Of a DNA stretch of 37,169 nucleotides, positions 1,012-36,634 are shown in pieces (positions within the stretch are counted from its first letter, which is position 1; every line of letters begins with the position of its first letter). Position numbers and translations under genes: made by a program. The DNA comes from Chiloscyllium plagiosum. Taxonomy: Eukaryota. The notes under the pieces were generated by a model. That model was not told where the DNA came from. It was given only the letters and a program-made list of their open reading frames with translations, and made no database searches. The stretch spans positions 45,108,539 to 45,145,707 of the forward strand of contig NC_057719.1 in assembly GCF_004010195.1 (NCBI RefSeq). Direction: 5' to 3'.

Positions 1012-1448
1012 CTCATTCATGGGATCTGGGTGTCACTGGTAATGCCAGCATTATTGCCCATTCCTAATCACTTGATGAAGGAGCGTCACTCCGAAAGCTA
1101 GTGTGCTTCCAATTAAACCTGTTGGACTATAACCTGGTGTTGTGATTTTTAACTTAGCTCAAATTGAATAGCTTTCTGGGCCATTTCATATGGTAGTTAA
1201 GAGTGAACCACATGCTATGGAGTCACATGTAGACAAGACTAGGTAAGGACATTAGTGAACCAGATGTGTTTTTAATGACGATTGACAGTGGTTATCTGGT
1301 TATCATAGGCTAGCCTTTAATTACAGATTTTTACTGAATTCAAATTTCACCACCTGCCATAGTAGGATTTGATCCTACGTGCCTGGAGTGTTTATCTGAG
1401 GCTCGGGGTTGCTAGTCCAGTGATATTACTATGACTGCATCACCACCC
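1012..1448 (-). mobile_element. Decayed SINE with LINE-derived tail, interrupted by a PLE fragment at 1073-1155
   Basis: 1012-1070 is the reverse complement of the GGGCAATAA(A)TGCTGGC...ATCCCATGAATGA tail also seen at about 15075-15130 and 20262-20318; the body resembles the + strand copy at 10858-11008 (GTGGTT(G/C)ACTCTTA). Confidence 0.6.
1073..1155 (+). mobile_element. Penelope-like pseudo-LTR fragment with 5'-clipped hammerhead motif
   Basis: TGATGA-A-GGAG-cgtca-CTCC-GAAA-GC...GCTT (1073-1108); the C before TGATGA is missing. The distal TGGACTATAACCTGGTGTTGTGATTTTTAA recurs inverted at about 27013-27044. Confidence 0.7.
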
Positions 1449-2089
1449 AGCTTTGCACTGGATCCTAGAGGGCCCAGGCCTGCTGAGAGTGGCCTGCCCA
1501 GCTACAAACTTACCCTCCTTGGCATGGACATTTCTAGGCTGTAGTGTCGTAGGCTTCGCATCTCCGAAGTTTCCTGAAAGGAATTCCTCTGGGAATCTCA
1601 TCTGTGGTTCCTTTTCGAACTGGATGCCTATTGGCACCATCATTTCATACCTGAGGAGAAGGAACACCTGAAGTGAGTTTGAGGTCCTCGTCTCCTTTTG
1701 CATTACCATTGATGATGAGCACCAATGGCTACAGTAATGGAGTGAAGGTCTGTGCCTATGTTGGACAGTCATTGACAATGCTAGATGTGGCCAAAGTAGA
1801 AGGCAGCCTATCCATGAAGATGCAAGATGCACAAATGTCAGAGTCTGTACCTTACTGATAATATTGGTGAAATCCTCCATCCTTCTATGCAACTTACCAA
1901 GTGTCTCTGAGAAACCTGTCTGATGTTTCTGAGTCTCTGTGCACTTTGAAGCTATTAATGGCTGAGGGCTTTTGGTCTTTTGCCTGGGACTGAGTGGATG
2001 CTTGGTATCCAGTAATCCTCAGTGTCAGAGACCTGCGGCTTCCTTCTTTATCCAAATGCGCTCATGTCAGTGATGATGCTCATCAGGTT

Positions 2090-2403
2090 GAGAGAGTCAT
2101 CGAGATGTACTGCATGGAAACAGAACCTTCGGTCCAACTCGTCTGTGCCAACCAGATATCTAACTTAATTGGTCCCATTTGCCAGCATTTGGCCCATATC
2201 ACCCAATTGCGTTTTAAATATTGTAATTGTACCAGCCTCCACCACTTCCTCTGGCAACTCATTCCATACACACATCACCGTCTGTGTGAAAAGGTTGCCC
2301 TTGATTCCTTTTAAAATCTTTCCCATCTCACCTTAACCTTTTAGTTTCGGACTCCCTCACCCCAGAGGAAAGACTTTGTCTATTCACCTTATCCAAGCTC
2401 CTC
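2090..2403 (-). mobile_element. CR1-type LINE 3' end
   Basis: Reverse complement of the same 3' region as 1-455 (ORF 2083-2271 YGMSCQRKWWRLVQLQ matches ORF 9-374). Confidence 0.85.
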
Positions 2404-3040: not shown

Positions 3041-3496
3041 CCAGAAGAGTGAAGATCAGGCAAAGCAAAACATTACTTTTTTTGACATCAGTGCTGCCAT
3101 TTTGGGGTCAATATTTCAACTGCCATCCTCTATTAAGGTTACCTCGTTGAACATGCTAGCTTGTTACAGATTAGTTACTGGTTCATTTCCTGCAGCAGAA
3201 CCTGAGACTGTACAAGTGTTAATTGCGCTTTCTAGTGTTCTTTGAAGTTGCAAAGGTTTACAGGATGTGGTGTGGTAAGTGCTGAAGAACTTCAAAGTTT
3301 CTGCCAAAAAACAGTTGCTGTTAAGAAGACTGTGTAGATTGACCTTCCTCATGGAATAGCATGTGAATGGGTAAATGATCAGTGATTCATTTTATAAAAA
3401 AAAGAAGAATGGGTAATGGAAGAGAGACCGAACAAAAATGGAAAGGAGGCAGCACTGAACAGTTTGAGTCAGATACCCATCAGCATTGTCCTAATC

Positions 3497-3655
3497 AAAG
3501 AGGAAGTGAGGATTGCAGATGCTGGAGATCAGAGTCAAAAAGTGCGGTGCTGGAAAGAGCTTTACCCCTGATGAAGAGCTTATTCGAAATGTCGATTCTC
3601 CCGCTCCTCGGATGCTGCCTGCCTCGGTTGTGCTTTTCCAGCGCCACGTTCTTTG
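3497..3655. mobile_element. Fold-back Penelope-like pseudo-LTR insertion with 14-bp TSD
   Basis: Flanks GCATTGTCCTAATC (3483-3496) and GCATAGTCCTAATC (3656-3669); inverted arms GGTGCTGGAAAGAGC (about 3546-3560) and GCTTTTCCAGCGCC (3632-3645). Confidence 0.8.
3568..3593 (+). ncRNA. Minimal hammerhead ribozyme motif (partly decayed)
   Basis: CTGATGA-A-GAG-ctta-TTC-GAAA-T-GTC: both core boxes and the GUC triplet are present; helix II is shortened and the helix III C is changed to T. Confidence 0.5.
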
Positions 3656-3810
3656 GCATAGTCCTAATCTGCCATTTACTGATACTGCTTTTTCATCCCT
3701 TTTACTGACCACTACATTGTTGTCTTTGCGACATACAAAATAAAAAAAAAACACGATGTTCCAAATGAAATTTGCAAATGAATTCTTGTTGCATATAAAG
3801 GTAAACTAAT

Positions 3811-4326
3811 CACCTCTTATATGAAGGGTGTTGTAAAACTTGAAAGGGTTCAGAAAAGATTTACAAGGATATTGCCAGGGTTGGAGGGTTTGACCTAATA
3901 GGGAGAGGCTGAATAGGCTGTGGCTGTTTTCCGTGCAGCATCGGAGGCTGAGGGGTGACCTTATTGAGATTTATAAAATCATGAGGGGCATGGAGATGGT
4001 AAATAGACAAATTATTTTCCCTGACAGGGGGGAGTCCAGAACTAGAGGGCATAGGTTTAGGGTGAGAGGGGAAAGATTTAAAAGGCACTGAAGTGACAAC
4101 CTTTTCACAAAGAGAGTGGTGCGTGTATGGAATGAGCTGCCAGAGGAAGTGGTGGAGGTTGGTACAGATACAACACTTAAAAATCATCTGGATGGATATG
4201 TGAATAGGAAGGGTTTAGAGGGATATGGATCAAGTGCTGGCAAATGGGACTTTTACGATATCTGGTCAGCATGAACGAGTTGAACTGAAGAGTCTGTGTT
4301 TCCTTGCTGTACATCTCTGACTCTAT
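3811..4326 (+). mobile_element. CR1-type LINE 3' end
   Basis: Near-collinear with 1-455 (GGAGAGGCTGAATAGGCTG...TCCAGAACTAGAGGGCATAGG...TCTCTGACTCTA). Confidence 0.9.
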
Positions 4327-4586
4327 TCCCATCATGCTTATCTTCTGTGTGCTTTTGTATACCCCTAGTGCCCTTAAGCAGTGTAACATGAATGGTTGCA
4401 ACAAGACTGCTAAATAATAGTAGTGGACCTTTTGTCATGTGGTTTTGATGCCACATCACGAGTCAAGACAGATTGGTCAAGGAGAAGGCAACAGCAGCAA
4501 TGTCTTCAGGTTTCAACTTCACCTAACACTACTACTTAATGTATATTAATAATAAATACTACATTATATGGTTAACACAGATATAT

Positions 4587-4821
4587 TGTTATGGTCTTTA
4601 TAGTTATTAATCTATTTTCTGTGTTCATGTCCATGTGCTCTTAAAGCTTTCTAAAGTACCAGTCTAGTGTCATCGTGTCTCATCTCATCTCATCTCATGT
4701 AATGTGGGTAATCTGGTCTCGTCTATTTTAACTTTGCCTCCACAATACTATTTATACTCTGGTGTTCCGTTCCATGACATCATCACACGACTGCGCTCAG
4801 ACCTTGAGCCCTTACGTAACA
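4587..4821 (-). mobile_element. LTR (3' LTR of a minus-strand Gypsy-like element)
   Basis: Termini TGTTATG...CGTAACA are a 6/7 inverted repeat; minus-strand GTATAAATA (4749-4757) is TATA-like; a purine tract GGGGAACGG on the minus strand (4822-4830) abuts the TG start like a PPT. Confidence 0.6.
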
Positions 4822-5830
4822 CCGTTCCCCAAGCTTTAGCATCTCATTATAAACATTGATTAACATTTATTTACATTGTAAAATTTGTTACTCAGATTAT
4901 TTATCCGATAACATTTATTGAATATTTTCTTGCCTTACCTGTCCTATCCTTCCCCAAGTCTTTGACTTGATTAATCAGTTTTGATAGGAAAGTCTGTGAC
5001 CATGAGCAGAAACACTTGAGGTCAAGCTGATGATCTTGCGTTTTCTCTGCTGGCTTCTGATTTCAGAGATTCAATACTCTAAAGGACTTGCACTTTTGTA
5101 ACAGAAGGGGTTTATGAAAATTACAAGGTGTTAAGTATTTAACACTATTATTAATGTTGGACATTGCGGTTAGTTCCTCTTGGAAGAAATTAAATAATCC
5201 ATCTTTACATTGCTTTTCATGAAATGAAGCTTCTTGCCTTGTGAAATTGATGTGCTCTTCAAGGTTCTGATCCAAGGCATAAATAGGTTGGGAACAATTT
5301 GATCTATTGCTTGGTATGTTCTTCAGACTGTAGCATGTCATCAGTGACTCAATTTCTACAGTACATTATTGATGGAAGTCTGAACAGTTTTGACTTTGCT
5401 GATGTGGGGTTTTGGAATTCCACCTGTAACAAGATAGTGTAGTATTCAATTCTTTAGGAATTCATGCTGTTGTTGTCACGTTGTGTACTGTTTAGATGAG
5501 AAGCCTGTCTCCTCTGATCAAGTGGTTTATTGTGGTTAAGTAGTCACATGTTCTTCGTTCAATGGAACCTTTGCTGTATGATACCTCTGAAATAGTTTTC
5601 TAGGTTCTATATTCACAGGTATTGGACTAATTATAGATTGAACTCTTTGGATTGAAGAAATTCATTGATCTAAGAGACCAGTGACATTTTTGTTGCAAAT
5701 GAACACGTTGTTTTCTGTAGATGTTTTGTTCAAATGGTACATATAGGTCATTAATGAAATTATCTACAGTCTCTCCTGGAAGCTGATATCTGCTACTGAA
5801 GGGTGATGTCAAAATGGTTTATTTGTTCTT
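4822..5830 (-). mobile_element. Heavily decayed Gypsy-like internal region (gag/pol remnants)
   Basis: ORF 5627-5812 RYQLPGETVDNFINDLY resembles the Gypsy gag RxQxxGESVxxFIxDL motif; same orientation as the adjacent PPT and LTR. Many stops; the extent is uncertain. Confidence 0.45.
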
Positions 5831-7729
5831 GAAATTCTATATTGCCAAAATCTGTTATGAGGAATGAGTATTCATTTCTTATTGATCTGTTCTTTATGTA
5901 ATGCACAATTAGATGTTGTTCCCCTGCAGTAGAGACTTGTGCTAACAACATGTTCTGCATTTCATTTGATATCTGGTCAAAAAGCTGTTCAAAATCTTAG
6001 GAATTGTGCTTTCAATGTCTACCAACTTGCTGATCTATAAATAGATTTGAAAGCTTACATTTATCTCTGAATTTTTTGTATTGCTCAATAATTGATAGTA
6101 TGTGACGTTTTTGATTATTTTCTAGATTAGAAAAATTTTGTTAGGATTTGATCCTGTACTACACTCATTCCTTTGCCTCGTGGTATTTTTAGTTCATTAG
6201 AGTTATTGTGCAATATTTCTTTTTGTAAAGACTGTCGTTAGAATACAAAAATTGAAAGTTGATAAAGTTTATGATGTTTTAAGTGTTTTTCTAAAGTAAA
6301 CTTCAAATATCCCATGACAATATGGTGTCTTCAAAGAGATGAATCTAGATATTCCTTTTGCAAGGTGGTTGCGAAACTTCAGCAGTGTAGCAACTTTGGA
6401 TCTTATTGAATGAAATCATTTTCACAATGAGTTTTTAAAAAATTGTTTTGATGTCTGCCATGATGTAATTTAGGCTGATGTGCTACGTCTGAGAAATTCT
6501 CATCAAATTCGACATCACATATTCAAATTCATCTTCTCCTCCTTTAACTGATTATTCATATGTTAATGAATAAAATCAATAAAAAATCTCTTGGGTGCTA
6601 AGTAAAACTTCGTATTTGTTGTTCAAACCATCAAAATAATAAAGATTTCACTAACTTCGCTGTCGGAGCTTTGATACTTTGAATTGCTGTAACCACTTTT
6701 ATTTCTGCCCTTTTCTTGTCTTTTCAATTCATTTTTCTTAAAGCCTGAACGTGAAGAATATTTTGTTAATTTTGTCATCAAATAATTTGTCTTAACTGTG
6801 CTCCACTGTTTAGTTTTTTTTCAGTCCAAACAAAACCTTTTGACCTGCCCTTAAGGGATTACATTTGCTTTGAGTACCTGGTAATTTGCTTCTTTCCATG
6901 GGTACTCGATTCACATTTATTCCCTTAACTGTTAAGGGGCTTTCATTGCTGTCCCTGCTTCCTTTAAGGGCTTGATTCCCTATTACTAATTGTAAAAGGC
7001 TTTTTGAGACTTGGATTGATTGCTCTGATGGTTTCTCAGGTTTTCTGTTGGGCAATTCTTGCTTCAAAGTGGCGATTCAGCTTTGTGGCTTTTCTGGCTG
7101 CTAGCTTTTCTATCTAGTAATTTCTTGAAAAAAAATTGAATTGTTTTCTCTCAACAATCTTGGGTCAGTTTCTTGACCTTCACTCCTGCCACAATTCTCT
7201 TGGCAGTGTATTCTGCCACTGGCATCATCTTTTCTCATATGGTTTGATGCAACATTTGGGTTTGGACTAGCTTAAGCCGCGAATTGTCTTCAGGCTTAAA
7301 CTTCAATGAAATGCTATTTATTATACACTAATTACTACTATAGATTTTAATCACAGATATTTGGCTCTGATCTTATAACATTGGGTAATGTCTAATTATC
7401 ATCATCATTGTTTGTTCAAGTCTACATGCTCTCAAGACACTCAAGTTCTAGCCTAATCTAGTGTTGACTGATCTAGTTCTGCCCACACTGCTATTTACTC
7501 TCAGAAATGTGTAACACTGTGACCTTATTCACAAGGTTGATCTCGGGTCCTTAAGCCTTTGCACAATAGTGGGCATAGTAGTCTTGGGGGGGAAACAGAG
7601 CAGCTCTGAACCCGGGCTTCAGACTGTGCAACGATATGGGTAGCAGCAGTCTGGACTGCCTGACCGGCAACAACAAGGACAGTGATAGATTCATCCTGAG
7701 AGAGGAAAACTGACTCATGTTTCACATTA

Positions 7730-7850
7730 AAACCTGCAGATGCTGGAAATCTGAACGAAAATAGAAATTACTGGAAAATCTCAGCAGGTCTGGCAGCATC
7801 TGTGGAGAGAAATCAGTTAGCATTTCAGGTCCAGTGACCCTTCCTCAGAA
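7730..7850 (-). mobile_element. Penelope-like pseudo-LTR fragment with decayed hammerhead
   Basis: Minus strand CTGAGGA-A-GGGTC-actg-GACCT-GAAA-TGCT (7819-7848); the cleavage triplet is lost; same family as 30613-31613. Confidence 0.75.
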
Positions 7851-8002
7851 TAATTAAACAGTACATACTGTGGTGTAATACTAGGTGGGAAAAAAAATCT
7901 TTAAAACAGATTCTTTATATTTAAAGACATTTATATTTGAAACAAATTGCAAAAATGCTGAAACGTGCAGCCATTGTGCAATACTATAATTGCAACTCAG
8001 TT

Positions 8003-8330
8003 GGCAACACCTTGAATTTGTTCTTGAAGCGCAATGTTGACATTAATGACTGGGAGGTGCTTGCTACCAATTGCTCAAAATGGCAACAACATGTCTATCA
8101 AACTGCATCATGACTTGAGACCAAATTACGTAATGATGAGGCAAAGCAATCGTGGAGAAAGAAAAGAAAGCTAATCCTGCACTTCAGATCCCACTACCTC
8201 GAGACATCCTGTTCCACGTACTCAAAGATCTGTTGGACAAGAATTGGCCAGTTCAGTCCCATGATGACCCATGGCAGAAACCAGCAACCCTGTGTACATA
8301 TCATCCTCCAATCGAGAGATAGCTGATGAC
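8003..8330 (+). mobile_element. RTE-clade LINE 3' end, decayed
   Basis: Translates to NVDINDWEVLATNCSKWQQHV, then a degenerate C-terminal zinc-finger-like CSTYSKICWTRIGQFSPMMTH, then a short ATCATCCTCCAATCGAGAG...GATGA tail. Confidence 0.65.
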
Positions 8331-8826
8331 TGGATTTCTATTGTAAGTTAGTCAAATTTGAGACATCAGCTAAAACTAATACAATTATGTGTCCTCAACA
8401 GTTGTATGTTCTTTTTAAAAATTCAATAGATATTTTTCTATTACAACCTTTAATTATTAGCACTTTTCAGGGTGAAAGCAAAAGTCTATTTACAAAAGTT
8501 AACAAGAAACTTCTAAATTGCGTTGTGATTGAAATTCTGTGGCAGAGGCCAGTCATGCCATTTTTCCAGGGTTTATGCCAGGGTTGGGGTAGACATTTGG
8601 CAGAAATTCCAGGTGACTACAAACAAAGAAATGCTTTATATGCGATGTGATGTCTGTATTCTAGCTTTGAATATTTGCCTGACAGTCATAGAAGCTTACC
8701 AGCAAAGAAAGAGATCATTCAGCCTATCTTGTCTGAGCTGCCTGTTTGAAAGAATTATGCAATTTGAGCACCCACCCCACCCCCGCCGATCACTTGCTCA
8801 TTTTCATTACAAGCTGCATTTTCATG

Positions 8827-11493: not shown

Positions 11494-11567
11494 AGGGCCA
11501 AGGCTACAATGGCTTTAATGTTCCAATTAGATGCCCACGACTATCATTTTGGAACATCTGATTACAT

Positions 11568-11690
11568 GGAGAAAGTGAGGTCTGCAGATGCTGGAGATCA
11601 GAGCTGAAAATGTGTTGCTGCAAAAACGCAGCAGGTCAGGCAGCATCCAAGGAGCAGGAGAATCGACGTTTCGGGCATGAGCCCTTCTTC
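11568..11690 (-). mobile_element. Penelope-like pseudo-LTR insertion with perfect 14-bp TSD
   Basis: ACATCTGATTACAT at 11554-11567 and 11691-11704; minus strand (T)GAAGA-A-GGGC-tcat-GCCC-GAAACGTC hammerhead is clipped at the core. Confidence 0.85.
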
Positions 11691-11807
11691 ACATCTGATT
11701 ACATATTAACTACTGTAGAATTCTTTAAATTGCACTATGTAACTTGTAAAATTGGCTCATTTAAGGCTTCCTGTAAATAATGCTTTTTAAAAATATATAT
11801 TCTAACC

Positions 11808-12798: not shown

Positions 12799-12979
12799 AT
12801 TAAGGAACAATACTGGGTGCAGCAGAGGAAGCGCAAACCTGAAACAGAGACTAAAAGATTTGAAAATTATTGCCAAATCTAAGGCTGTTTTGTACTTTTT
12901 GTTTCCTGCTTGCAAATGAGCTTTATTTTCATACTGCTTAAATTCCATGCAATAACTGGCCTCTATTGATCTGCTTTAG

Positions 12980-15463: not shown

Positions 15464-15625
15464 AATTGTGGATGTAGGTTTGCTCGCTGAGCTGGAAGGT
15501 TCATTTTCAGATGTTTTGTCAACATACTAGTAACATCTTCAGTGAGCCTCCAGATGAAGCACTGCTGATTATTCCTGCTTTCTATTTATATGTTTGGGTT
15601 TTTTTGGGTTGGTGATGTCCTTTCC
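15464..15625 (-). mobile_element. Penelope-like pseudo-LTR fragment (distinct family) with decayed hammerhead
   Basis: Minus strand CTGAAGA-T-GTTA...TGAC-AAAACATC (15510-15542); AAAACATC is GAAACGTC after two G-to-A (CpG-type) changes. Confidence 0.6.
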
Positions 15626-15765
15626 ATTTCGATTCAGCAACAGTGAAGGAATGGAGATATATTTCCAAGCTTGGAGGAGAACTTGCCTTTCCACCTAACA
15701 ATCATTAACATTAACATTCCATAGTGCTAAGAGGATATTTGCCCTCATAGGAGAGCCAGAGGGCA

Positions 15766-19710: not shown

Positions 19711-19714
19711 TTCT

Positions 19715-22559: not shown

Positions 22560-23085
22560 CACTCGTCCAATGAGTCAAATTTCCTCTTGGGCTGTCATCT
22601 GCTTTCAACCTAAACTCTCAACTTTTCTAATTTCTCTGCAGTTTCTCCTTGCTGTGCTCTCATTACTGCTATGAGCTCATTTTATTTCACTTCCTACTTC
22701 CTCAAGCCTACTCCTGCTAAATTGCTGTCCATTCAACTTACCCTCTTGATCCCCATATTCACTGATATTTTTAATGGTTCTCTCTGTTGGGTGTTTTTCC
22801 TTTTAAGTCTGCTGTCATCAAGCCCCCTCCACAAAAAACACCCCTTAACCCACTGACTTTGCAAACTACCATTCTATCTACAACTCTTTTTCCTTGCAAA
22901 CGTCCTTGAATTGTGTTTTTGTCTTTACAATCTGTGCCCATTTTCCCCAGAACTTTATATTTTTATCTCTCTAATGGTTTCTACCTCAGCTACTGAAACA
23001 GTTATTAGAGTCAAAAATGGTCTCTTGGATTTCTTGACAAAGATAGGTTTTCTTTGCTCATCATTTTCAAACTAACCTGGCTTTA
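22560..23085 (+). mobile_element. L2-clade LINE RT fragment, decayed
   Basis: PTPAKLLSIQLTLLIPIFTDIFNGSL, then in shifted frames FKSAVIKPLHKK...DFANYHSIYN, resembles L2 PIPxKLL...IINxSL...KxAxIxPLLKK...NYRPIS. Confidence 0.65.
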
Positions 23086-23129
23086 GTCTTTGGACCAAAC
23101 GTTCTCCTTCGATGCTTCTAGTCTGATGG

Positions 23130-23390
23130 CTTCCTTTATTGACATAGGTGAAATTAAACATGGACTGGGTGTTCACTTTGTGGGACACCTCTGCTCTGTT
23201 TGTAAGAATGACCTGAACTTTCCAATTGTTACCACTTCAATAAAGCATCTTGCTCCCATGCTTACATTTCCTTCCTTGTAAGCTACTCTGTTCCATTGAA
23301 ACTCAAGCCAGCTGGAGGGTTTATACCTTATTTTCTGCTTTGGCATGTTACAGCCTCCAGAACTTATCATTGAGTTCAACCTCTTCTGAG
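23130..23390 (+). mobile_element. Penelope-like element GIY-YIG endonuclease remnant
   Basis: IGEIKHGLGVHFVGHL (YIGET..RL..RF..H-like) and SQLEGLYLIFCFGMLQPPELIIEFN, which is homologous to the C-terminus at 31002-31100. Confidence 0.7.
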
Positions 23391-25822
23391 TATGATCTCT
23401 GTTACAACTCTCCTCCCTCACCACAAGCATTGGTGCACACAAGAGCATGTTAGCAAATACTTCCAGTTCACGTTGAGATGGAATCAAATCAGTATGAGAT
23501 CTTTTATTACCTTTGGTTTGTGGCCTGCAGGTGTCATTTTTAAAGTTGCTTGTGACTACTTCTGCTTCATAGAGATCAATCTGCAATGATGCACAATGTG
23601 CTTGTGCACATTGGAAACTGCATGTATATCATGGGGACAATAATATGATTTTAACTTGTACTGTGATTGCACCTGTGCCATCTTAGGGTCCTGTGGTACA
23701 GTGGCAGTCATTGGCACATGTGCATTCTCTAATGTCAACAGAAACTTCTTTGGTGGTTCTTTTGTTGTATAAAACCCACCACCAATCGGACCTTCCTCTA
23801 GATTTAGTTGGACAGGAAACCAATTTAAGGGCTTAACTTAGTCAGTTTCCCACTGGGGGCACATTTTATACACCAAAACATCCCGGATTGTTGCTTCCCA
23901 TCTCCAAGAGGCAAATCCAGCCCAATTTTCTAATTTAGGTCAAATTATGCATTTCTCAGTACTATTCAGTTATTACTAACTATTATTAAACACTCCATTA
24001 ATTGGTGAATTGTTCTGGCATTTATACCAGCGAAATGGCTTCTTATCTGTTTAGGAATCATGGTCAACATTCTGGCTCAAGGTACTTTTAATTGTAACTG
24101 GTCAAATATTTGTCAGAGTATTTGCTTGAATAGCCTTCCAGGGGAAGTATTACTACCCTTTATGTGAAGTAGGTTTGTTTAAGCTACTCATTTATTCCTA
24201 AATGTCAAAAAACTATTCCAAAAGTGTGTCTTACAGCAGAAATGTTATCACAGAGCTCGGTACTTGAAAGTTTTATGGCCCAGAATTTGTTGGAGATTAA
24301 CTGGTCTGTTTGGCCTGATCTGGCCTGTTTGACTTGTTTATGCTCTCTTCAGCTCGGAAATGGTTTTCCCTATGGTGATTCGGAATTCAAGGGATATGAG
24401 ATGACTTGCATTAAGAACATAGTACAACTTCCAGATTTTCTCAGTTGGAGCACAGTTGGAGATGTCTTTTTGTTTGAAAACATTGATTAATGCTTAACGT
24501 TTTAAATGACCCAGAAGACTCAACAGATCCCAAAACAATTTTCCAAAACTCTTATCACTGCACTAAATTTATGTTTCAGGTCAAGTCAGCTGCACAAAAT
24601 AGTTTCTCTGAGGGATTCTTAGAGTATTGCATGTTAGAATCAAATCAAGAAGTAAAATTACACTCAAGCAAAAATTTATCAATATAAATGAAATGCAATG
24701 TATTTAATTTTACATTGCATCACCTATTCCAAAACAATAAAAGGCTTTAATTTATTACTTTTGAAGATGAGTTTGTGATGAACAGCCTTAGATGAAGAAT
24801 ATACCTTAGACAGTACTGTAAGCCATAATGCAAGGACATAAAAAAAAATGAAGAGTACTCACCATTAGCTTTGTTTCAGGTTTTCTTAGCTTTAGTGGTC
24901 TTGCCAGCACAAAATATTTGTTAAGAAGTTACTCTTCCCTATTAATCAAGGCCGTCCAGTCACAGTCAAAGCACATTCAGCACTGAACCAGAGGACTGGA
25001 AAATTGCTGATCTAAACCCCCCCGCCTCCCCATTTAAGAAAGGAGTAAGGCAAAAGACGGGAAATTATTGGCCAATTAGCCTGACCTCAGTTGTTGGTTA
25101 AATTTTGGAGTCCATTGTGAAGGATGAGATTTCTGAATGCTTGGAAGCGCATGGTTAAAACAGGGCAAAGTCAGCATGGTTTCCCCCAGGGGGAGGTCAT
25201 GCCTGACAAATCTGTTAGAATTGTTTGAGCAGGTTAGACCAACGAGAGCCAATGGATGACATCTTTCTGGATTCCAGAAAGCCTTTAACAAGGTGCCGCA
25301 CAGGAGGCTGTAAAGTAAGATGGAGACCTATAGTATTAGAGACAAGGTACTAGCATGGATAGAAGCTTGGCATCTGGCAGAAAGCAGAGAGTGGGAATAA
25401 TAGGGTCCTTCTCAGGATGGAAGCCGGTAGCTAGTGGTGTTCCGGAAAGCTCAGTGTTGGGACCACAACTTTTCACTTTATGCATTAATGATCTAGATGA
25501 TGGAACTGAGGGCTAAGTTTGCAGATGATACAAAGCTTCGGTAGCGAAGCAGATAATATTGAGGAGGTGGGCAGGCTGCAGAAAGATTTAGACAGGTTAA
25601 AAGAGTGGGCAAAGAAGTATCAGATGGACTACCATGTGGGAAAGTGAGAGTTTGTGCACTTTTGTAGGGAGAATAGAGGCATTGACTATTTTCTAATTGG
25701 GGAGAAAATTCAGAAATCTGAAGTGCAAAGGGACTTGGGAGTCCTAATTCAGGATTCTTTTAAGGCAAACTTGTAGGTTGAGTCAGTAGTTAGGAAGGCA
25801 AATACAATGTTGTCATTCATCC

Positions 25823-26319: not shown

Positions 26320-26438
26320 GAGGAGACAGTGAGGTCTGCAGATGCTGGGGATTAGAGTTGAGTGTGTGTTGCTGGAAAAGCACAGCAGGTTAGGCAGCAT
26401 CCGAGGAGCAGGAAAATCGACATTTTAGGTTGGAACCC
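26320..26438 (-). mobile_element. Penelope-like pseudo-LTR fragment nested in CR1
   Basis: Same family as 11568-11690 (GTGAGGTCTGCAGATGCTGG...GGAGCAGGAAAATCGAC); the hammerhead is truncated and mutated. Confidence 0.75.
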
Positions 26439-27012
26439 AAGGAATGTTTGAGCACTCTGGGACAATACTTGATGGAGTTTATAAGGATGAGGGGAGGGGG
26501 ATCTGATTGAAAATTACAGGACACTGAACAGCCTGGACAGAGTGAATGTTGGGAAGATGTTTCCATTGGTAGGAGACAAGGACTCAAGATCATAGCCTAA
26601 GAGTACAGGGAAGACCCTTTAGAATGGAGATAAGGAGAAACTTATTTAGCCAGAGAGTGATGAATCCGTGGAATTCATTGCCATGGAAGGCTGTGCAGAT
26701 CAGGTCATTGAGTATATTTAAAACAAAGATAAGTTCTTGATTGCCAAGGGGATCAAAGGGGCAAAAGCGGGAGAATGGGGTTGAAAAATCAGCCATGATT
26801 GAATGACAGAACATAAGCAATGGTCCGAATGGCCTAATTTTGTTCATATGTCTCTCAGTCTTATGGAGTACGGTGAAATGTGTGCAATGACACCACATAT
26901 GGTGTCATCTTTGACATAAAGTACATGGTTATAAATCTTAGGTATTAAAATAGGTTCAATACAAAAATAGAGAACACTAAAAGTTCTATGTCACAGTTCT
27001 TCATAGTATAAA

Positions 27013-27107
27013 TTAAAAATCACACAACACCAGATTATAGTCCAGGTAGCCACTGGGTCAGGATCATAGGACACAGAACTTACTATGATTTCTGTCCTAT
27101 GATCCTG
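27013..27107. mobile_element. Collapsed fold-back PLE pseudo-LTR remnant
   Basis: 27013-27044 is the inverted end of the 1073-1155 family; perfect 15-bp inverted repeat CAGGATCATAGGACA (27059-27073) / TGTCCTATGATCCTG (27093-27107). Confidence 0.6.
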
Positions 27108-27442: not shown

Positions 27443-27598
27443 GTGGAAAAAAATAAATTTAAAGTAAGCAGTTATGGAAATATTTGAACTGTTACAGCAC
27501 AGTACAGTCCAGTTCCAAGTTCATAGAGAAAGGACAAATATGAAATTTGTTATTTTCTAAAGTTGATATCATCTAGGAAATAACTTTGCCATCCTATA

Positions 27599-27754
27599 AT
27601 AAACAAAGAAGTGCGGATGATGGAGATCTGAAACAAAAACAGAAAATGAAGGGATACATAAAAACATCAGATGAGGAGTCACTGGACTCAAAACATTAAC
27701 TCTCAGATGCTTCCAGAATTGCTGAGTTTCTTCAGCAATTTCTGTTTTTGGTTT
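27599..27754. mobile_element. Fold-back PLE pseudo-LTR remnant with dead hammerhead
   Basis: Inverted arms GAAACAAAAACAGAAA / TTTCTGTTTTTGGTTTC; CAGATGA-G-GAGTC-actg-GACTC-AAAACATT (27668-27697); possible TSD CATCCTATA / CATCTTATA. Confidence 0.65.
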
Positions 27755-28123
27755 CATCTTATATCGGTGTCATCCCCTCTGTTAAAGCCAACCCAGTACT
27801 TTGCCATTTAATTCAGCTGTTTGATTTGTAAAAACACTGAATTGTTTAGTGATTGATACATTGAATATTTGACCCATTCATCTCATGCACCTTAATTAAG
27901 AAAATAGCAAAGAGAGAAAGGTTGAGTATGTGCCTTGAATTAAACAAAGATTTGGAATTAATATGAAAAATGTCTCCTAACATTGAAGAACTGAGGCCTC
28001 AGAACTGACTTTTGTGGTTCTACATTTGTAACTCCTTTCTACTTTAAAAGTCTCCACTTAATAATTGTTGTGTGTTACTTACCAACGTGTATATTGTTTA
28101 ACAATGTTCTTATTCTGTAACTA

Positions 28124-28300
<177 letters not shown>

Positions 28301-29119
28301 TAATTCAATTGTCTTTATATTATTCTTTTGTTTGGTCTGCACTCTTTCTTCATGCCATAGAGAAGTTATTTTCTTGTGTTAAATCTCATGTATGTGAGTT
28401 GTAAGTGTAACAAACTTTTAGCTCCTGTCACTGCTTTTTGGAATTCGTAGCATTTGACTTGCCAAGATTAAAGGAATTTAGCACTTTTATTATAGACAAT
28501 ATATTTCTGAGTCTCTGCACTCCATTTTTATCTGTACTACTTAAAATTTATAGCCTGGGCATTTTTTTCCCTGGAACTAGAAATCATTGTATTCTATGAG
28601 TCAGTGATTGAATTACACACAGTAAGTAGATGAATACAGTAAAGCAATCCTTTAAAGTGTTAATAGATTTCTTTTTATCAGTCTAGTCGACAGCGTAGAT
28701 GGTGCTTGTAGACAATGGCAGTCACTTGTATTGGATCATCAAATTGCATTTCAATATTAAATCACATGCGTTTATCTCTGCAAATTGTTTGAATTATTTT
28801 TGTAATCCCAATGCCTACAGCAGCTGTACTGAAATGATAATATCCCCATGAGAGACAAAAAAAGTCATTTGCACAGATTTACGCAGGCAGTATTTGAAGA
28901 GAAAAAAAATGTAAGTCTGAGAACTAATTACCACCAATGAAACAACACCCAGAAATAAGAAATTGGACCTTGTCTTTACATTTAGCAGTTTCTTCTTTCT
29001 TCTTTCCCATTAATATTTCAAAAGTATCAAGCTGCTACATTATTATTCGAGGCCTTCTGTCTGAATTGAATTTGTACAAAATGCAATGTTCAAAACAACC
29101 AAGATTATTTTTTGTATTG

Positions 29120-29416
29120 AATCCCGACAGTGTGGAAACAGGCCCTTTGGCCCAATATGGCCACACTGACCCTCTGAAGAGTAACCCACGCAGACCCGTT
29201 CCCCTCCCTTATTAACCTACATTTACCCCTGACTAATGCACCTAACCTATATATCCCTGAACACTATGGGCAATTTAACATGGCCAATTCACCTAACCTG
29301 CACATCTTTGGATTATGGGAGGAAACCGGAGCACCTGGTGGAAACCCACGCAGACATGGGGAGACTGTGCAAACACCACACAGTCACTCAAGGCTGGAAT
29401 CAAACCCGGATACCAG
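29120..29416 (-). mobile_element. HE1-like V-SINE, 5' truncated
   Basis: Collinear with 25823-26171; a B-box-like GGTTTGATTCC on the minus strand near 29396-29406. Confidence 0.85.
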
Positions 29417-30057
29417 ATCAAAGAACAAAGGAGATAACCAGTGTTCACAACATATTCAGGCCAAAATTTGCCATTTCAGCAGGAATGTGTTGGAATAGTC
29501 ACAGCATATGCTGGAAACTAAATAGTCCATTGAGTGCTGACCTTGCCAAAGAGTTTGCTTCAGCTCAGAACTTTCATGAAGCTACTGATGTTGAATGATG
29601 TTAGGGCAGCAGTGACAATGATGGCTAGTATTGGCCAAAGATAAATGTTGCAACATTTAGGAATGACATTCGTAGGGTTCATGTTGGTGTCCGCATCTGG
29701 TGAAGAAGTCAGAGTTTAAGGTGATCTACCTGCTGAGGAAGCTGAGACAAAGCCAGAAGTTTCAGGGGAAGGGAGATGACTACTTTAAACACTTCAGTCA
29801 GATTATCATCAATGCATTCATACTACGAGGCTTTCTACACATTTTTGATGGCAGCTGCAGAAGTTGAGACCTTCAGTAGTCACATCTAATGTTATTATAA
29901 TTGTGTTTCATTATATGGCTCTGATTGATGTCAAAAGCATAGGAGATTCATTCTAAGACATAGAATGAATGCACTGCAATACATTGACTGAATGCATTAC
30001 AAAGGGTGAAATGACTGTCAGGAATAACTACTATACAAGGTCCAACATCAATATTCT

Positions 30058-30236
30058 ATGATAAAATAAAGACAAAGTGCTATAGAAACTCAGTCTGGCA
30101 AACAACAGGTAATGTTTTGAGTCCAATGTGACTTCACAATGCTCCTTCTCCTCCAAGTGTTGATGAACCTCCTGAGGTTTTTTGAGTACTTTCTGTTTTA
30201 ATTTCTGATATCCGGCATTAGCAGTATTTTGCTTTC
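30058..30236. mobile_element. Old fold-back PLE pseudo-LTR remnant with 13-bp direct flanking repeat
   Basis: ACATCAATATTCT at 30045-30057 and 30237-30249; degenerate inverted arms (AAAGTGCTATAGAAACTCAG / CTGAGGTTTTTTGAGTACTTT). Confidence 0.6.
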
Positions 30237-30612
30237 ACATCAATATTCTGTTGTTGTTCACATGACAAATGTGGCATTGATAGGGAAATAGTTTGAAATG
30301 TCGTGCAGAAGCACCACTAGATCTAAGGACAAATGAGAGAGATTATTCCAATCAAAAAGTAATGGGAGTATTACAGGTTGCATGTCTAAAGTTCAATGAA
30401 TCACAGTTTCACTTTTAAAATTATGGCTAAGGACAGAAACCACTCAGCTGCAGAAGGGGAACTCCAGCACTACTTCATGATCTGTTAGAAGCCATCTTTG
30501 GACATGTGTGAACTTCTTTTAATAATGATGTCTGAGTCATATGATTAATGTAAAACAACTGTGAAATGTCTTCTGACATAAGGTAATTGACAAACTCTTC
30601 TAAAATCATCTT

Positions 30613-31613
30613 AAAAACCGAAAAAACTGTGGATGCTGTGAATCGGGGACAAAAACATTGCTGGAAAAGCCCAGCAGGTCTGGCAGCATCTGTGAAGAGA
30701 AATCGGAGTTAACGTTTCTGAGCTGGTGAACCTTCCTCAAAACTGATGATAGTTAGAAAAATGTCAGTTTATGTGCAGAAGATAGGATGGGGCAGGGGGT
30801 TGGAGTAAACAAAATAGGTGCAGATAGAGTCCAAAGAGAGAGAAGGACAGTGGGACAGACAGAGGAATAGATAATGATCTGGCTGAGAGGGTGAATAGCT
30901 ACTAATGGAGACTGTTAGTGTCTAACAATAGGTACTGTGTAATGGCAGACTGTGAATAACAAGGTGTGGTGTGTGGGGTAGGGGCTAGGACATAGGGGAG
31001 TTCAAGCCCTAAAGTTATTGAATTTGATATCGAGGCCAGAGGGCTGCAGGGTCCCGAAGTGGAAAATGAAGTTTTGTCCTTCCAGCTTGCACTGAGCTTC
31101 ACTTGAGCACTGCAACAAGCCTGAGACAGAATGTTGGCCAGGGAACAGGGCGGTGTGTTAAAGGGGCAGGCAACTGGAAGCTGAGGTGTCTTTTTATTTT
31201 GCGGTCAGATGTTGTGCGAAGTGGTTGTCCAGTCTATGCTTCATTTCCCCAGTGTAGAGGAGACCACATTGTGAGTAGTGAGTGCAGTGACTAGATTGTG
31301 GGAAGTGCAAGTAAAGTGCATTTCTAAGTGAACATCTGAATTCTGCCCTCGCCAGTTTCCACTAACAGCTATTCACACTTCTAGCCAACTCATTTGTCTG
31401 TCGATCTGTTTTTTTTTCAGGGCTCTATCCTTACCCATCGCTTACTCCTTACTCCGTGTTCTTCCCCCACCCCCAATTACCTTCTGCATATAACTAACAT
31501 ATTTCTAACCACAATCAGTTCTGAGGAAGGATCACCAGACCTGAAACGTTAACTGTGATTACTCTTCACAGGTGCTGCCAGACCTGAGCTTTTCCAGCAC
31601 TTTTTATTTTTGT
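30613..31613 (-). mobile_element. Penelope-like element: GIY-YIG endonuclease remnant between inverted pseudo-LTRs, 15-bp TSD
   Basis: TSD TTCTAAAATCATCTT at 30598-30612 and 31614-31628; minus strand 31319-31002 gives HFTCTSHNLV/CTHYSQCGLLYTGEMKHRLDNHFAQHL...EAQCKLEGQNFIFHFGTLQPSGLDIKFNNFRA*; arms at about 30640-30914 and 31353-31613 are inverted copies. Confidence 0.9.
31516..31555 (+). ncRNA. Minimal type I hammerhead ribozyme, intact-looking core
   Basis: CAGTT-CTGAGGA-AGGATC-acca-GACCT-GAAA-C-GTT-AACTG: perfect 5-bp helix I (CAGTT/AACTG), helix II with one bulge, palindromic AACGTT helix III, and a GUU triplet with predicted cleavage after 31550. Confidence 0.75.
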
Positions 31614-31962
31614 TTCTAAAATCATCTTCCTAGGCTTTAGCTTCAAACGTTGCATAAACAGCCTCAAATCAGAGCAAGCAGGCCTGAAAGAGCATTGCCA
31701 TGCAAACCACTTCTGGGAGATGGCTAGAAAACCTATGCATGGCTGATATCTATGCCTCTCTGAGGAAGCAGTTTGCATGTTCCCTCAATTACATGATCAA
31801 CACCAGTTACTGCCACTAAAGGAAACTGCAAGTAAAAATTCTCCATCCTAACAGTCTGTGGCACAAACCCTAAACCAAATTAACAAGTTCTTGCGTGAAA
31901 CAACTTCAATTGATTATATTTCAGAAGCAAAACAAAGTTGGTAACAATAGTTTCCAAAGAAA

Positions 31963-32085
31963 AATTCTGAGATCTTGGGAAGCCTGAAATTAAAATATTT
32001 TGGGGATTGCTCAGCAGGTCAGACAGCATCTGTGGAGAGGAACAGTTAACACTTGAGATTGATAACCTTTTATCAGAACTGAAGA
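31963..32085 (-). mobile_element. Decayed PLE pseudo-LTR fragment
   Basis: CTCAGCAGGTCAGACAGCATCTGTGGAGAG...; minus strand CAGTTCTGATAAAAGG...GTTAACTG keeps helix I but the core is destroyed. Confidence 0.6.
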
Positions 32086-33065
32086 AAGATTGTGAGCTGA
32101 ATCTCACTATCTTCTCAAAACTTGCCTCCTTAACAATCTACCACACCCCTCAGGCACCTCTAGTCCAATTCTAGCTCCATTTTACCACATGCTGTTCCTA
32201 GAACAACTCCCATTCACTTGTTATTTTGGAATTGACCACAATCCCTGGTGATGCACTAATTTTTAAAGTCTATTATGCACCTGGACAAGCACTGTCTGAT
32301 AGAATTGTCCTGCATGCTTCCTGAAATTTGCCCCTTATTATAGCAGGCAAGGAGAAATTGGAGGCCGTTTTGCAGGCAGAAGCCCGGAGATCCTGGTCAA
32401 GGGGGTAGTTCAGATACTGGACTTCCTCACCCCATGGGACTGGCACAAGTGCTCATGAGACCACACAATGTCAACTTGGTGTGAGATTGCCATCTAGGGT
32501 TAGCACAGTGTTTGTTATGGACTCCTCCAAAATGCTATGTAGGAGGAAGGTCAGTGACCTTCCCCACTTCATCTGTGTAAGTGCCACAATCATATCGGTT
32601 ATATCTCACACACTTTTTATCTCTGCTATGTACACTCCTCCCAGCAAGGCTCGTGCTCTGCCAATCTCACTGTTGCCTGCGACACCTTTGCTACTTGCTC
32701 TTACCCACTCCAAGCCCCGACAGCATTAACCCTGCATGCCCTCAGCACTGCTTATTCCCTCACTCGGGCCATCTTCCCACCGGTGCCAAAATAATCACTG
32801 TGCCACGTGCTTTCATCTCCCTTTAGAGCTCTCCTTTTTTTTTGCTTTCCTAGGGAAGCAGCCCACAATAAGGCAGAAAGATTCAAAACAGGTGGTGGGC
32901 TGCTTGACGTTCGTCTCCTCCCCAATTATGTGGGCAGCATCCTGATTCTGACCACCCTGAGTGACAGGCTGGCTGATTGTGGCCAAGATCCTAACTGGTA
33001 TCAGATAGCTAAAATTCTCGACATCTGGTGAAATTGACAGCTGAATATTAATTATGAGAGTTGTG

Positions 33066-34167
33066 GCATTAATAAGACATTTAAGACATGAGATAACTTT
33101 GGCAAATGGAATTAAGGAGGAATCCAAAGAATTTTTACAAATACATTAAGGTCAAAAGGGTAACTAGGGGGAGAATAGGGCCCCTCAAAGATCAGCAAGG
33201 CGGCCTTTGTGTGGAGGTGCAGAAAATGGGGGAGATACTAAACGAGTATTTTGCACCAGTGGTGGATAAATCCCCAGGATCTGATCAGGTGTACCCTAGA
33301 ACTCTGTGGGAAGCTAGAGAAGTGATTGCTGGGCCTCTTGCTGAGATATTTGTATCATCAATAGTCACAGGTGAGGTGCCGGAAGACTGGAGGTTGGCTA
33401 ACGTGGTACCGCTGTTTAAAAAGGGTGGTAAGGACAAGCCAGAGAAGTATAGAGCAGTGAGCCTGACCTCGGTGGTGGGCAAGTTGTTGGAGGGAATCCT
33501 GTATTTGGAAAGGCAAAGACTGATTAGGGATAGTCAACGTGGCTTTGTGCGTGGGAAATCATGTCTCACAAACTTGATGGAGTTTTTTGAGGAAGTAACA
33601 AAGGGGATTGATGAGGGCAGAGCAGTAGATGTGATCTATATGGACTTCAGAAAGGCGTTTGACAAGGTTCCCCATGGGAGACTGATTAGCAAGGTTAGAT
33701 CTCGAGGAATACAAGGAGAACTAGACAATTGGATACAGAACTGGCTCAAAGGTAGAAGACAGAGGGTAGTAGTGGAGGGTTGTTTTTCAGACTGGAGGCC
33801 TGTGACCAGTGGAGTACCACAAGGATTGGTGCTGGGTCATCTACTTTTTGTCATTTATATAAATGATTTGGATGCGAGCATAAGAGGTACAGTCAGTAAG
33901 TTTGCAGATGACACCAAAATTGGAGGTGTAGTGACAGCAAAGAAGGTTACCTCAGATTACAACAGGATCTAGACCGATGGGCCAATGGGCTGAGAAGTGG
34001 TACAATTGCAACATTTTAAGAAACATTTGGATGGGTATATGAATAGGAACAGTTTGGAGGGATATGGGCTGGGTGCTGGCATGTGAGACTAGATTTGGTT
34101 GGGATATCTGGTCAGCATGGACGGATTGGACCGAAGGGTCTGTTTCCATGCTGTATGTCTCTATGAT
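33066..34167 (+). mobile_element. CR1-type LINE RT fragment (288-aa open frame) joined directly to its 3' end
   Basis: ORF 33106-33972 has VPEDWRLANVVPLFKKG, SCLTNLMEFFE, DFRKAFDKVPH, SGVPQG and FADD motifs; at about 33998 it jumps to TGGTACAATTGCAACATTT and the 3' tail ending TCTCTATGA. Confidence 0.93.
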
Positions 34168-36271
34168 AACAAAATAATCCAGTTTAATTGGTAGCTATGT
34201 GTCTAGCAAAAAAAAACTTGCCTCCCATTTGACAGATACATAAAAGAGGCAGTGAGTTGCTCCCAATTTGGAGATAATCATCACGATACTAACCCTTCTC
34301 CACACATCTCATCATAGCCCACTCATAGAGTGATACAGTACATACAGCACTGTGCCTAAAGCCTTAAGTGCTAAGATAGAGTTTATAATCTAACATTGTT
34401 GAACTTAATTTTTTGCAGAAATCTGTTGAATTCTGAGATTGAAAGATGAGATGCAGTCCATTCAGCTTGTGGTGTGTCTTTATTGTAACACTGTAGCAGG
34501 CCATTGAGAATAATCTCAGAATGGAAGCAAGGTGGAAGATTTAGTGTTCCAATGATTAATAATCCGATAATCCATTTCCTGTTATTACTCTGTCATTTTC
34601 TTTGATATTTATCCCTGCTGGTAAAACAATAGGCAGACAGTTGCTAGGCATTTACTGCACAACAATAATTCAAGGTCTTTAATTTCTTGACTGAATCTGA
34701 CGTGAGAAATCTTGAAGAAAACAAGGGGTGAGAATGGCACATAATTTTGCAGCAAAACAAAAATAAAAGCTAAAGCTATTTCTGATATTGAGGTATTTCT
34801 GAAGTGTTAAACAATATTATCATCAGATTAGTAAATGTTTTCAGACTTCCTGTCCTGAAAGTACCAACTCCTGTTGACCAGTTCCAGCGGTACTGGTAGT
34901 GAGTGTTGGTAAATGAGACCTTAGAGGATAATGAGTCATGTTGATCCTGTTTCCACCCAATATTCACACAAATATTTTGTCAAACATAGATGGCTATTAG
35001 CAGAAACCTTGGTTGATTTTTGTTCCTCTTTAGACAGAGACAACTGATAAAATTGTAGTGCACAATTCATGACTTTTGAGGTCAGCTAACCTAGCAATTT
35101 GGGAATTGTTGATGGACCCTTCTATCTGTGTGATTTACTGATGTGTTGGATTGTACTTTTACCCATAAGGCCAAGAGCTGAACCTATTCTTCCTCTTAAT
35201 GTGTAGAGCTGAACAAAGTAGACGACTGTATTCATTCACTTCAGCATTTGGTTACACTGCAACATTCCCTGACATTTCTAAAGTTGCTAATTTCTGTCCG
35301 TTCCAGATTCAGGTTTGTGCAGTTACATCTTGGTAGAGACACCACAAAGAAGTACGCTTTATTTTACAAGAAACTAGAGATCAGTTTATAGATTAAAATG
35401 CAATGTCTAAGTCTTTGTGCATCAGAGATCTTGATATACACATTTAGCACAGGCCTTTCATTTCCTTAAGCCTCCTCCACTATTCAGAAATATCATGGTT
35501 GATCGACTTACTACACCATTCTCACACATTCTCGTCTCAAAGTTACTCTTTATTTATATGTGGAAAGTCCATGACAGTGGTTTAGCTTCCTCAGAGCCAG
35601 CCCTCAGAATATCAAGGTGTCTGACACTCCTGCTTATATGTCAGCCAGAGTTCCCTGATTGGGGCTGTTTATCTGGCTCAATCAGGGATCTCGTATATTC
35701 TACCTGGCTGACCTTGTTACAATCACTACACTTATATCTTTCAATCAAGTGCTCTCTTTTCTAAAATCTGTTGAATACAATCTTAACTTGTCCAACCTTT
35801 CAACATAAGGCAACCCACCAACTCCAGATATTCATCTAGTAAACCACCACCTCCACAGTTGTCAACAATATAATTGATTTATGGGCCTTGAAATCCCTGA
35901 CTCATTATAAATTTCCAACATATGTATTATCTACAAACTAGACTTTTGACTTGCATTCACCACAAGCCAATCATTTGACCTTCGTTACAAGAGCAAAACA
36001 CAATGCATGCAGAAACTCTGAGATGAAAGCTGGAAGACCTCAATACATGTGGCAGCATCTTAATGATGGAATTTAATGGTCATGCTAGTGGGTCTGTTCA
36101 CAGGCTGGAAATTGGTAGCTAGCTCCATTGTGGCCATTTTGAACCCCAACCCAATTTATCATCCTTTAGATATTTGGCTATGAGCTCCTAAACATCCAAG
36201 AACATATAGCCCCATACATATTAGTATGGAATAGTGCTACCTTGTTCGAAGTTAGGTTCAGTGGGTAATCT

Positions 36272-36634
36272 GGATTAGTGGTGCTGGAAGAGCACAGCAG
36301 TTCAGGCAGTATCCGAGGAGCAGTAAAATCGACGTCTTGGGCAAAAGCCCTTCATCAGGAATAAAGGCAGAGAGCCTGAAGCGTGGAGAGATGAGCTGGA
36401 GGAGGGTGGGGGTTGTATTCTATGCCACTCTCTCCCCACCCCCACCCTCCTATAGCTTATCTCTGCACACTTCACGCTCTCTGCCTTTATTCACCCCCAC
36501 CCTTCTCTAGCTTATCTCTCCACACTTCACTCTTTCTGCCTTTATTCCTGATGAAGGGCTTTTGCCCGAAACGTCGATTTTGCCTGTCCTCGGATGCTGC
36601 CTGAATTGCTGTGCACTTCCACCACCACTGATCC
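36272..36634. mobile_element. Fold-back PLE pseudo-LTR pair with internal tandem duplication
   Basis: Arm 36272-36412 is the reverse complement of 36494-36634; about 55 bp is duplicated in tandem (about 36438-36492 and 36493-36547). Confidence 0.88.
36548..36575 (+). ncRNA. Minimal hammerhead ribozyme, intact-looking core
   Basis: CTGATGA-A-GGGC-tttt-GCCC-GAAA-C-GTC: perfect helix II, palindromic ACGT helix III and a GUC triplet; helix I is weak (TC/GA). Confidence 0.7.

Follow-up and report, generated by a model that had tools for sequence, protein, structure and literature searches.

We analysed a 37,169-nt stretch of Chiloscyllium plagiosum DNA (contig NC_057719.1, positions 45,108,539 to 45,145,707; hereafter the window, in whose own coordinates all features are given), in which 12 hammerhead ribozyme (HHR) motifs lie in insertions of Penelope-like elements (PLEs). 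By the features testable here, the set consists of canonical endonuclease-positive PLE insertion units with minimal HHRs. Their 5' truncation is not random, the ends piling up at the upstream edge of the HHR. On balance, we favour the view that the insertions are old, mostly dead products of autonomous endonuclease-positive PLEs and not an independent small element. Signed positions are counted from the first core base of the HHR, with C3 as +1.

Insertion units of Penelope-like elements

The 12 motifs represent 10 insertions, because 30740 with 31521 and 36358 with 36548 belong to two-armed ones. Four PLE pieces without a full HHR (E11, E12, E13 and the endonuclease remnant at 23015-23470) were added by BLAST, profile scan and tblastn. 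The total is 14 loci, one per 2.65 kb, which occupy 8% of the window. They are listed below with their target site duplications (TSDs).

1067..1155 (+). E1, family C PLE end; box 1 at 1072 (C3>T), helix II of 4 bp, AGCT palindrome, stem I of 3 bp; 5' end at about -4, inferred from the end of the neighbouring repeat; TSD not found.
3483..3669 (both strands). E2, head-to-head family A insertion 3497-3655; TSD 3483-3496/3656-3669, 13/14; left arm (-) at about 3497-3559, tail, no HHR; right arm (+) 3560-3655, from -8, tailless, with an intact core at 3568.
7728..7850 (-). E3, family B single arm from -2, with tail; box 1 at 7848, U16.1>C in the core; no TSD rising over background.
11554..11704 (-). 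E4, one family A arm at 11568-11690, from +2/+3; with tail; perfect 14-bp TSD 11554-11567/11691-11704.
15468..15628 (-). E5, a family of its own; box 1 at 15542, with G12>A in the core; upstream sequence of about 86 nt (extent by eye, from a single copy in the window).
23015..23470 (+). Remnant of PLE endonuclease-coding sequence (tblastn E 2e-9 to 5e-7), decayed further than that of E8; no HHR found downstream.
26322..26438 (-). E6, family A single arm within a LINE (long interspersed nuclear element), from +9 and hence without box 1; with tail.
27009..27046 (-). E13, tail of family C without an HHR, from about +50.
27598..27755 (both strands). E7, head-to-head insertion; flanking repeat 8/9, not above background; left arm (-) reduced to the tail, at about 27598-27648; right arm (+) tailless, from about 27660-27667, with an HHR at 27668 (U4>A, G12>A).
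30045..30249 (both strands). E11, head-to-head insertion 30058-30236, absent from the first-pass annotation; perfect 13-bp TSD 30045-30057/30237-30249; left arm (-) from about +5; right arm (+) with tail, its start ambiguous from +18 to +55.
30598..31628 (both strands). E8, head-to-head insertion of family B, 1.0 kb long (30613-31613), within a perfect 15-bp TSD; left arm (-) at about 30613-31340, GIY-YIG remnant 31340-31005, then 3' untranslated region (UTR), HHR at 30740 (C3>T) and tail; right arm (+) at about 31345-31613, tailless, about 175 nt of UTR and an HHR with intact core at 31521.
31957..32096 (-). E9, one family B arm at 31972-32081, from -5; core with 3 changes; TSD 31957-31971/32082-32096, 13/15.
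35995..36060 (-). E12, decayed end module 3' of the HHR; no core left.
36272..36634 (both strands). E10, head-to-head family A insertion; arms 36272-36413 (-) and 36493-36634 (+), 124/142 alike, both spanning -55 to +87; the HHR at 36358 has G12>A and A14>G, that at 36548 an intact core; TSD not found.

TSDs of 13-15 bp, 57-80% AT, flank five of the 13 events (E2 13/14, E4 14/14, E8 15/15, E9 13/15, E11 13/13), and a comparable score (at least 9) was reached at 1 of 60 and 2 of 200 random sites. For E1, E3, E5, E6, E7, E10, E12 and E13, no TSD above background was found up to 1.5 kb away. Head-to-head pairs make up five of the 13 events (E2, E7, E8, E10 and E11), with the element 3' ends facing the flanks. 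The tail is one-sided in four of these five pairs, one arm ending at +81 to +97 and the other at +124 to +128. Most copies proved to be short and devoid of open reading frames (ORFs), as the first-pass annotation had stated.

E8 carries coding sequence of the element. Inside its single perfect TSD, a frameshifted endonuclease remnant is followed by about 260 nt of UTR, the HHR and the tail. A phmmer search with the left-arm remnant yielded 43 protein matches at E up to 0.001, the best at 3.8e-11, and six of the nine that were scanned matched GIY-YIG (PF01541), all under the Pfam cut-off. Pfam detected no family in two frames of the remnant itself, and a word-based search of longer proteins with it gave 134 candidates, none at E up to 0.001. 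Three of five relatives inspected (P0004, P0009 and P0019) contain the CX2-5CxxC linker of the Neptune/Nematis type, whereas the E8 remnant is cut before the linker. P0019, as read from its sequence, is a reverse transcriptase (RT) with a C-terminal endonuclease and this linker. It is the one related protein in which an RT was seen, no window copy being long enough to reach the RT. The source of family B, the only family for which the endonuclease link is established, would appear to be a C-terminal GIY-YIG PLE whose relatives carry the Neptune/Nematis linker. Two public gene models, P0009 and P0013, fuse a PLE endonuclease fragment to an unrelated protein (DUF4518; a seven-transmembrane receptor) and are probably annotation artefacts. 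Together with the pair, tail and TSD anatomy, the E8 remnant supports the original identification of these sequences as PLE pseudo-long terminal repeat (pLTR) ends with minimal type I HHRs. In addition, E8, E9 and E11 are present in place in contigs of two further species (B and C) and the two arms of E8 differ by about 20%, which marks them as old insertions.

The HHR motifs themselves are real, but mostly as remnants. All 12 positions first reported fall on HHR-shaped or HHR-derived sequence, those on the minus strand having marked the GAAA or cut end of each motif. Box 1 starts at 1072(+), 3568(+), 7848(-), 11692(-), 15542(-), 27668(+), 30740(-), 31521(+), 32076(-), 36358(-) and 36548(+), while the copy noted at 26418(-) lacks it and begins at 26438, within helix II. 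A strict scan (CTGANGA, stem of at least 3 bp, GAAA) returned four matches against a mean of 0.3 (maximum 1) in 20 dinucleotide shuffles. With one mismatch allowed it returned 15 against 8.1 (maximum 13), so the decayed copies are not significant from the motif alone; their support comes from homology across the 80 nt downstream. An Rfam search of the window at E up to 10 gave 12 matches, none of them a hammerhead, all under the gathering score and most on the E10 palindrome. We scored the invariant core bases C3 U4 G5 A6 G8 A9 / G12 A13 A14 A15.1 / U16.1 H17, all of which are kept in 3 of the 12 copies (3568, 31521 and 36548) and at least one of which is changed in the other nine. The palindromic helix III that had been described, ACGT or AGCT with no loop, is present in six of the 12 copies and altered in the rest, most of which are compatible with CpG decay.

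Over 80 nt from C3, where random pairs are on average 47% and at most 57% alike, family A comprises 3568, 11692, 26438, 36358 and 36548 (68-88% alike) and family B 7848, 30740, 31521 and 32076 (68-84%). The copy at 27668 is B-like (56-65%), and 1072 and 15542 each stand alone. The four to five families so obtained agree with the earlier count of at least four. Minimum-energy co-folds of four copies produced no double hammerhead, although energy models do not score the catalytic core. RNAalifold on five B-type copies recovered helix II alone, with a two-sided change in one of five pairs and an unfavourable covariation term of +0.36, and hence no covariation support.

Arm 5' ends at the upstream edge of the hammerhead

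Eight of the 18 arms start at -8 to +9 of C3, and these eight come from eight events and at least three families. We modelled truncation as exponential. The probability that any 18-nt window holds 8 of 18 ends was 0.007 with the mean fitted to all arms, and 0.03 without the long arm of E8. For at least eight ends within -9 to +9 it was at most 0.0003 under every mean tested, a window picked after seeing the data. At the cut site (+28 to +33) no arm among the 18 has a clear start, the right arm of E11 being ambiguous. Random ends, as expected of simple 5' truncation, had been named beforehand as the outcome that would speak against units with fixed ends; the ends pile up instead. The check for fixed ends and TSDs in short copies gave a mixed picture: ends cluster and TSDs bound five events, no single-base end emerged, and the other eight events show no TSD above background.

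E10 presents a related case. Besides its two arms it contains an extra 55-nt upstream copy (36437-36492) that ends exactly at -1 before box 1. This duplicated segment, a single case, possibly arose by template jumping at the HHR edge or from a source RNA whose end is defined.

We aligned public runs from three species (40,953, 36,005 and 36,503 contigs) to 30000-32200 only. In DNA run X1, the summed contig depth, which is no copy number, was 7-11 over unique flanks and 1,015,916 over 30666-30739, which covers the HHR and downstream sequence. It was 3,771 in the next bin upstream; beyond that, the UTR had 11,877-17,349 and the coding part 4,960-31,893. The peak exceeded the highest upstream bin 32-, 31- and 30-fold in the three DNA runs, and about 50-fold among raw RNA reads (254 vs 5). 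Upstream, the depth levels off across 600 nt. A drop followed by a plateau is not the pattern of truncation at a constant rate. Most other genomic copies keep an intact box 1, as judged by the X1 loose-end consensus (778 and 1069 contigs, agreement about 0.6), which for these roughly 1,850 contigs runs through box 1 and the 5' strand of stem I. The family B consensus therefore keeps box 1, and this check on core-box conservation left the motif standing.

Joints between arms, which represent other head-to-head copies, lay at -6 to -4 in six of seven cases among the 15 joints listed of 1060, and at -6 to +3 in 10 of 11 cases in a second listing, which has 486 further rows. The right-arm UTR of E8 is poorly matched by other copies (depth 70-420), which biases the joints to the HHR edge. 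No empty-site joint was among the 15 listed of 1060. A single-cell polyA RNA run gave 879 reads from about 2% of the run, with the two directions alike (122 and 132). It showed no site of many shared molecule starts or ends, and such a library cannot show 5' ends, small RNAs or circles. In RNA run X21, an identical loose end at 30614 is common to 135 reads, and in 129 reads the loose end lies at 30655 and consists of an A-run. These ends point to one expressed copy elsewhere in the genome, plus, probably, oligo-dT priming on the A-rich antisense tail.

A possible route to the edge and its rivals

We propose the following route. The endonuclease would nick both strands of an AT-rich site 13-15 nt apart, the spacing of the TSDs observed here. 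One or both free ends would then prime reverse transcription inside the RNA, at about +85-95 or +120-128 from C3, and priming at both nicks would give a head-to-head pair with a tail on one side. Most cDNAs end a few bases from the upstream edge of the HHR, as observed in the window and supported by reads. The element RNA may begin at this edge, where the enzyme would run off its template after 90-130 nt, and a minority of events would use a downstream repeat or a template jump and continue into the UTR and ORF. HHR cleavage would not set the cDNA ends. Biochemical work on an anole PLE protein offers precedents: in vitro it nicks and extends both strands of AT-rich DNA, and two internal RT start sites define the tail. 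HHR mutants were not impaired in insertion in vitro, nor did any RNA ends map to the cut site (PMC11167929). Inverted pairs may alternatively arise by self-priming on an antisense template (PMC3846280). We also considered annealing of two cDNAs through the 8-bp stem I complementarity as the maker of inverted junctions but do not adopt it, the predicted joint near 30704 to 31517 not being among the joints listed.

Beyond this route we raise a bolder idea, which we regard as possible but rather doubtful. PLE RNA would start at the HHR edge, and the default product would be a fixed-length run-off cDNA, like retroviral strong-stop DNA, integrated singly or paired. Full-length copies and pseudo-LTRs would then depend on template jumping or on a tandem source, shark stumps would outnumber longer copies about 30-fold, and some of them may be self-propagating PLE-dependent SINEs (short interspersed nuclear elements). 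Were this correct, the stumps would form a genome-wide fossil map of the PLE RNA 5' end and a handle on pseudo-LTR regeneration, which has been stated as an open question (PMC2377424). The tens of thousands of TSD-bounded shark copies would allow a test of the run-off model.

Several points weigh against reading the insertions as PLE products that stop at the HHR edge. We saw neither a full-length element nor a transcript start or RNA 5' end, and 8 of 13 events have no detectable TSD. Five of the 18 arms reach upstream (-55 to -580) and another five begin downstream. The arm ends were set by hand from alignments, that of E1 from its flank and that of the E11 right arm with uncertainty, and the same clustering has P 0.06-0.38 when the mean is set to 20-60 nt. 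The depth peak pools families sharing the downstream motif and may be inflated by overlapping short contigs, and the joint counts rest on 15 listed of 1060. In Drosophila virilis Penelope, transcription begins 46 nt ahead of a 75-nt intron (PMC2377424), and the 3' end of this intron falls on helix I (PMC4209133), which places the transcript start well upstream of the HHR. The sequence before helix I in family B, with AG at -4/-3 in both E8 arms, resembles a 3' splice site, as in D. virilis Penelope, and a splice boundary could conceivably underlie the 5' step. By eye, family B shows at 30742-30780 (-) and 31485-31519 (+) a branch-point-like CTGAC/CTAAC, a pyrimidine-rich run and a CAG ending at -3. 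Lastly, almost identical traces would be expected from a short RNA made by non-autonomous source copies.

Such a short RNA is the essence of a SINE-like unit, in which ORF-less copies make an RNA of about 95-135 nt, reaching from the HHR edge as far as the priming sites, and the PLE protein mobilises it in trans. We hold this to be unlikely, although short TSD-bounded copies exist (E4 123 bp, E9 110 bp) and the 5'-end clustering and the depth step of about 30-fold or greater fit it. In rotifers pLTR sequences alone are enough for mobilisation in trans (PMC3846280), and putatively non-autonomous PLE derivatives such as MRC1 are known (PMC8557442). However, the 5' ends spread over 17 nt across four to five families, with 10 of 18 arms starting elsewhere, both longer and shorter, and junctions that differ between copies; in E8, moreover, the same module is joined to endonuclease-coding DNA within one TSD. 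An RNA polymerase III A-B box pair was found at the head of none of the 10 insertions, a weak test in that the pattern used recovered only one of three control SINEs. The sole match to the pattern lies inside E6, not at a head. SINE-like movement, suggested in the first-pass annotation, thus found little backing. Nor did retrozyme-like movement, in which HHR cleavage would free a unit RNA that is circularised and retrotransposed as monomers or tandem arrays. In its favour, the motifs are HHRs of type I, and retrozymes derived from PLE pLTRs have been reported, also from the one chondrichthyan sampled (10.64898/2026.07.22.740005). Yet neither of the two tandem arrays of the window contains an HHR, the cut site marks no clear arm start, the motifs are minimal instead of canonical (PMC7229834) and broken in 9 of 12, and the pairs are inverted instead of head-to-tail. 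We consider a non-LTR retrozyme highly improbable.

The remaining rival is plain random 5' truncation of full PLEs, with the pile-up as an artefact of picking HHR copies and of alignments failing in a fast-diverging UTR. Frequent 5' truncation is the published norm (PMC8557442; 10.64898/2026.07.22.740005). The arms range from 38 to 708 nt, and with short means 6-38% of simulations place 8 of 18 ends in some 18-nt window. The poor matching upstream in the E8 right arm also means that far-upstream joints cannot be placed. Against this stand the P values for the -9 to +9 window, albeit chosen post hoc, and a depth that falls and then plateaus with no steady decay. The ends of E4 and E9 are fixed by their TSDs, independently of alignment, and HHR-less arms were deliberately searched for and included. 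This account accordingly strikes us as quite unlikely, and products of autonomous endonuclease-positive PLEs remain the reading we prefer.

Genomic setting and comparison with known systems

The window is animal DNA rich in repeats, among them several LINE reverse-transcriptase remnants, and contains one host exon:

28163..28249 (+). First coding exon of G-protein gamma-2 (GNG2-like); protein match E 1.9e-11.

The window DNA 3' of this exon is intron of the G-protein gamma-2 gene. An AG precedes the exon and a GT stands at 28250, as read off the sequence, and the AG acceptor suggests that the DNA 5' of the exon may be a 5' UTR intron. Cleavage of host pre-mRNA by the surviving motifs would seem unlikely, since nine of 12 cores are changed, stem I of E2 is 1 bp, and the intact HHRs of E8 and E10 are predicted to fold onto, and be masked by, their own antisense arms.

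Among the background repeats, an open RT fragment of 291 aa at 33097-33972 (+) matches PF00078 (E 4.8e-24). The RT pieces of the window, including the LINE that hosts E6, look to be of what we take to be the CR1 type, and the repeats at about 11145-11490, 12500-12790, 25825-26170, 27105-27440 and 29116-29400 are presumably tRNA-type SINE-like. An inverted pair of 69 nt (14899-14967 / 15628-15696; 94% complementary, 660 nt apart) has its second copy adjoining the upstream end of E5. A minisatellite at 36638-37169 (unit 36 bp, 14.8 copies) begins 4 bases past the right end of E10, and a stretch of 15-16 nt to the left of E10, at 36251-36265, resembles it.

The insertion unit described for endonuclease-positive PLEs consists of a pLTR, an adjoining inverted 5'-truncated copy, an optional tail of 30-40 bp present on one end only, and a TSD (PMC3846280; PMC8557442). 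The copies studied here share its head-to-head arms, one-sided tail, long TSDs, GIY-YIG remnant followed by UTR and pLTR, and frequent 5' truncation. They depart from it in that nearly all have been reduced to stumps of 100-360 bp whose 5' ends gather at the HHR edge, and from the rotifer examples described in their TSDs (13-15 bp vs 8-10 bp; PMC3846280).

Minimal HHRs of metazoan PLEs, thought to cleave as dimers (PMC4209133; review PMC6765202), were described by Cervera and De la Pena in 2014 as occurring in thousands of solo copies, 'probably related to truncated PLEs', and in opposite-strand pairs 100-700 bp apart (PMC4209133). The present motifs resemble them in lacking loop 3, in the palindromic 15.2-16.2, in the unpaired base before helix II, in forming several families, and in being mostly solo with some opposite-strand pairs. 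At 12 motifs in 37 kb they seem far denser than the 4,000-9,000 per genome given for coelacanth and Xenopus (PMC4209133), but those counts require an intact descriptor, which no more than 3-4 of our 12 motifs would match. We found no paper on 5' ends clustering at the HHR edge or on shark PLE hammerheads, in a search that left most subscription papers and Repbase uncovered.

Two further systems invite comparison. Poseidon PAc of Anolis carolinensis (Frangieh et al. 2024, PMC11167929) likewise has two 3'-end classes past the HHR, an AT-rich target and cleavage that is not reflected in the ends, whereas the endonuclease relatives of family B carry the Neptune/Nematis-type linker and not the Poseidon layout. 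Non-LTR retrozymes (PMC7229834; 10.64898/2026.07.22.740005) are likewise short, non-coding, equipped with a type I HHR and related to PLE pLTRs; unlike them, the shark copies have no tandem units and no cut-site ends, and combine minimal decayed HHRs with inverted pairs. Such stumps should accordingly not be counted as active ribozymes or retrozymes. Published work already covers the presence of HHRs in PLE ends as well as solo copies, inverted copies, tails and TSDs, and the point of interest of the present set is the stop at the HHR edge.

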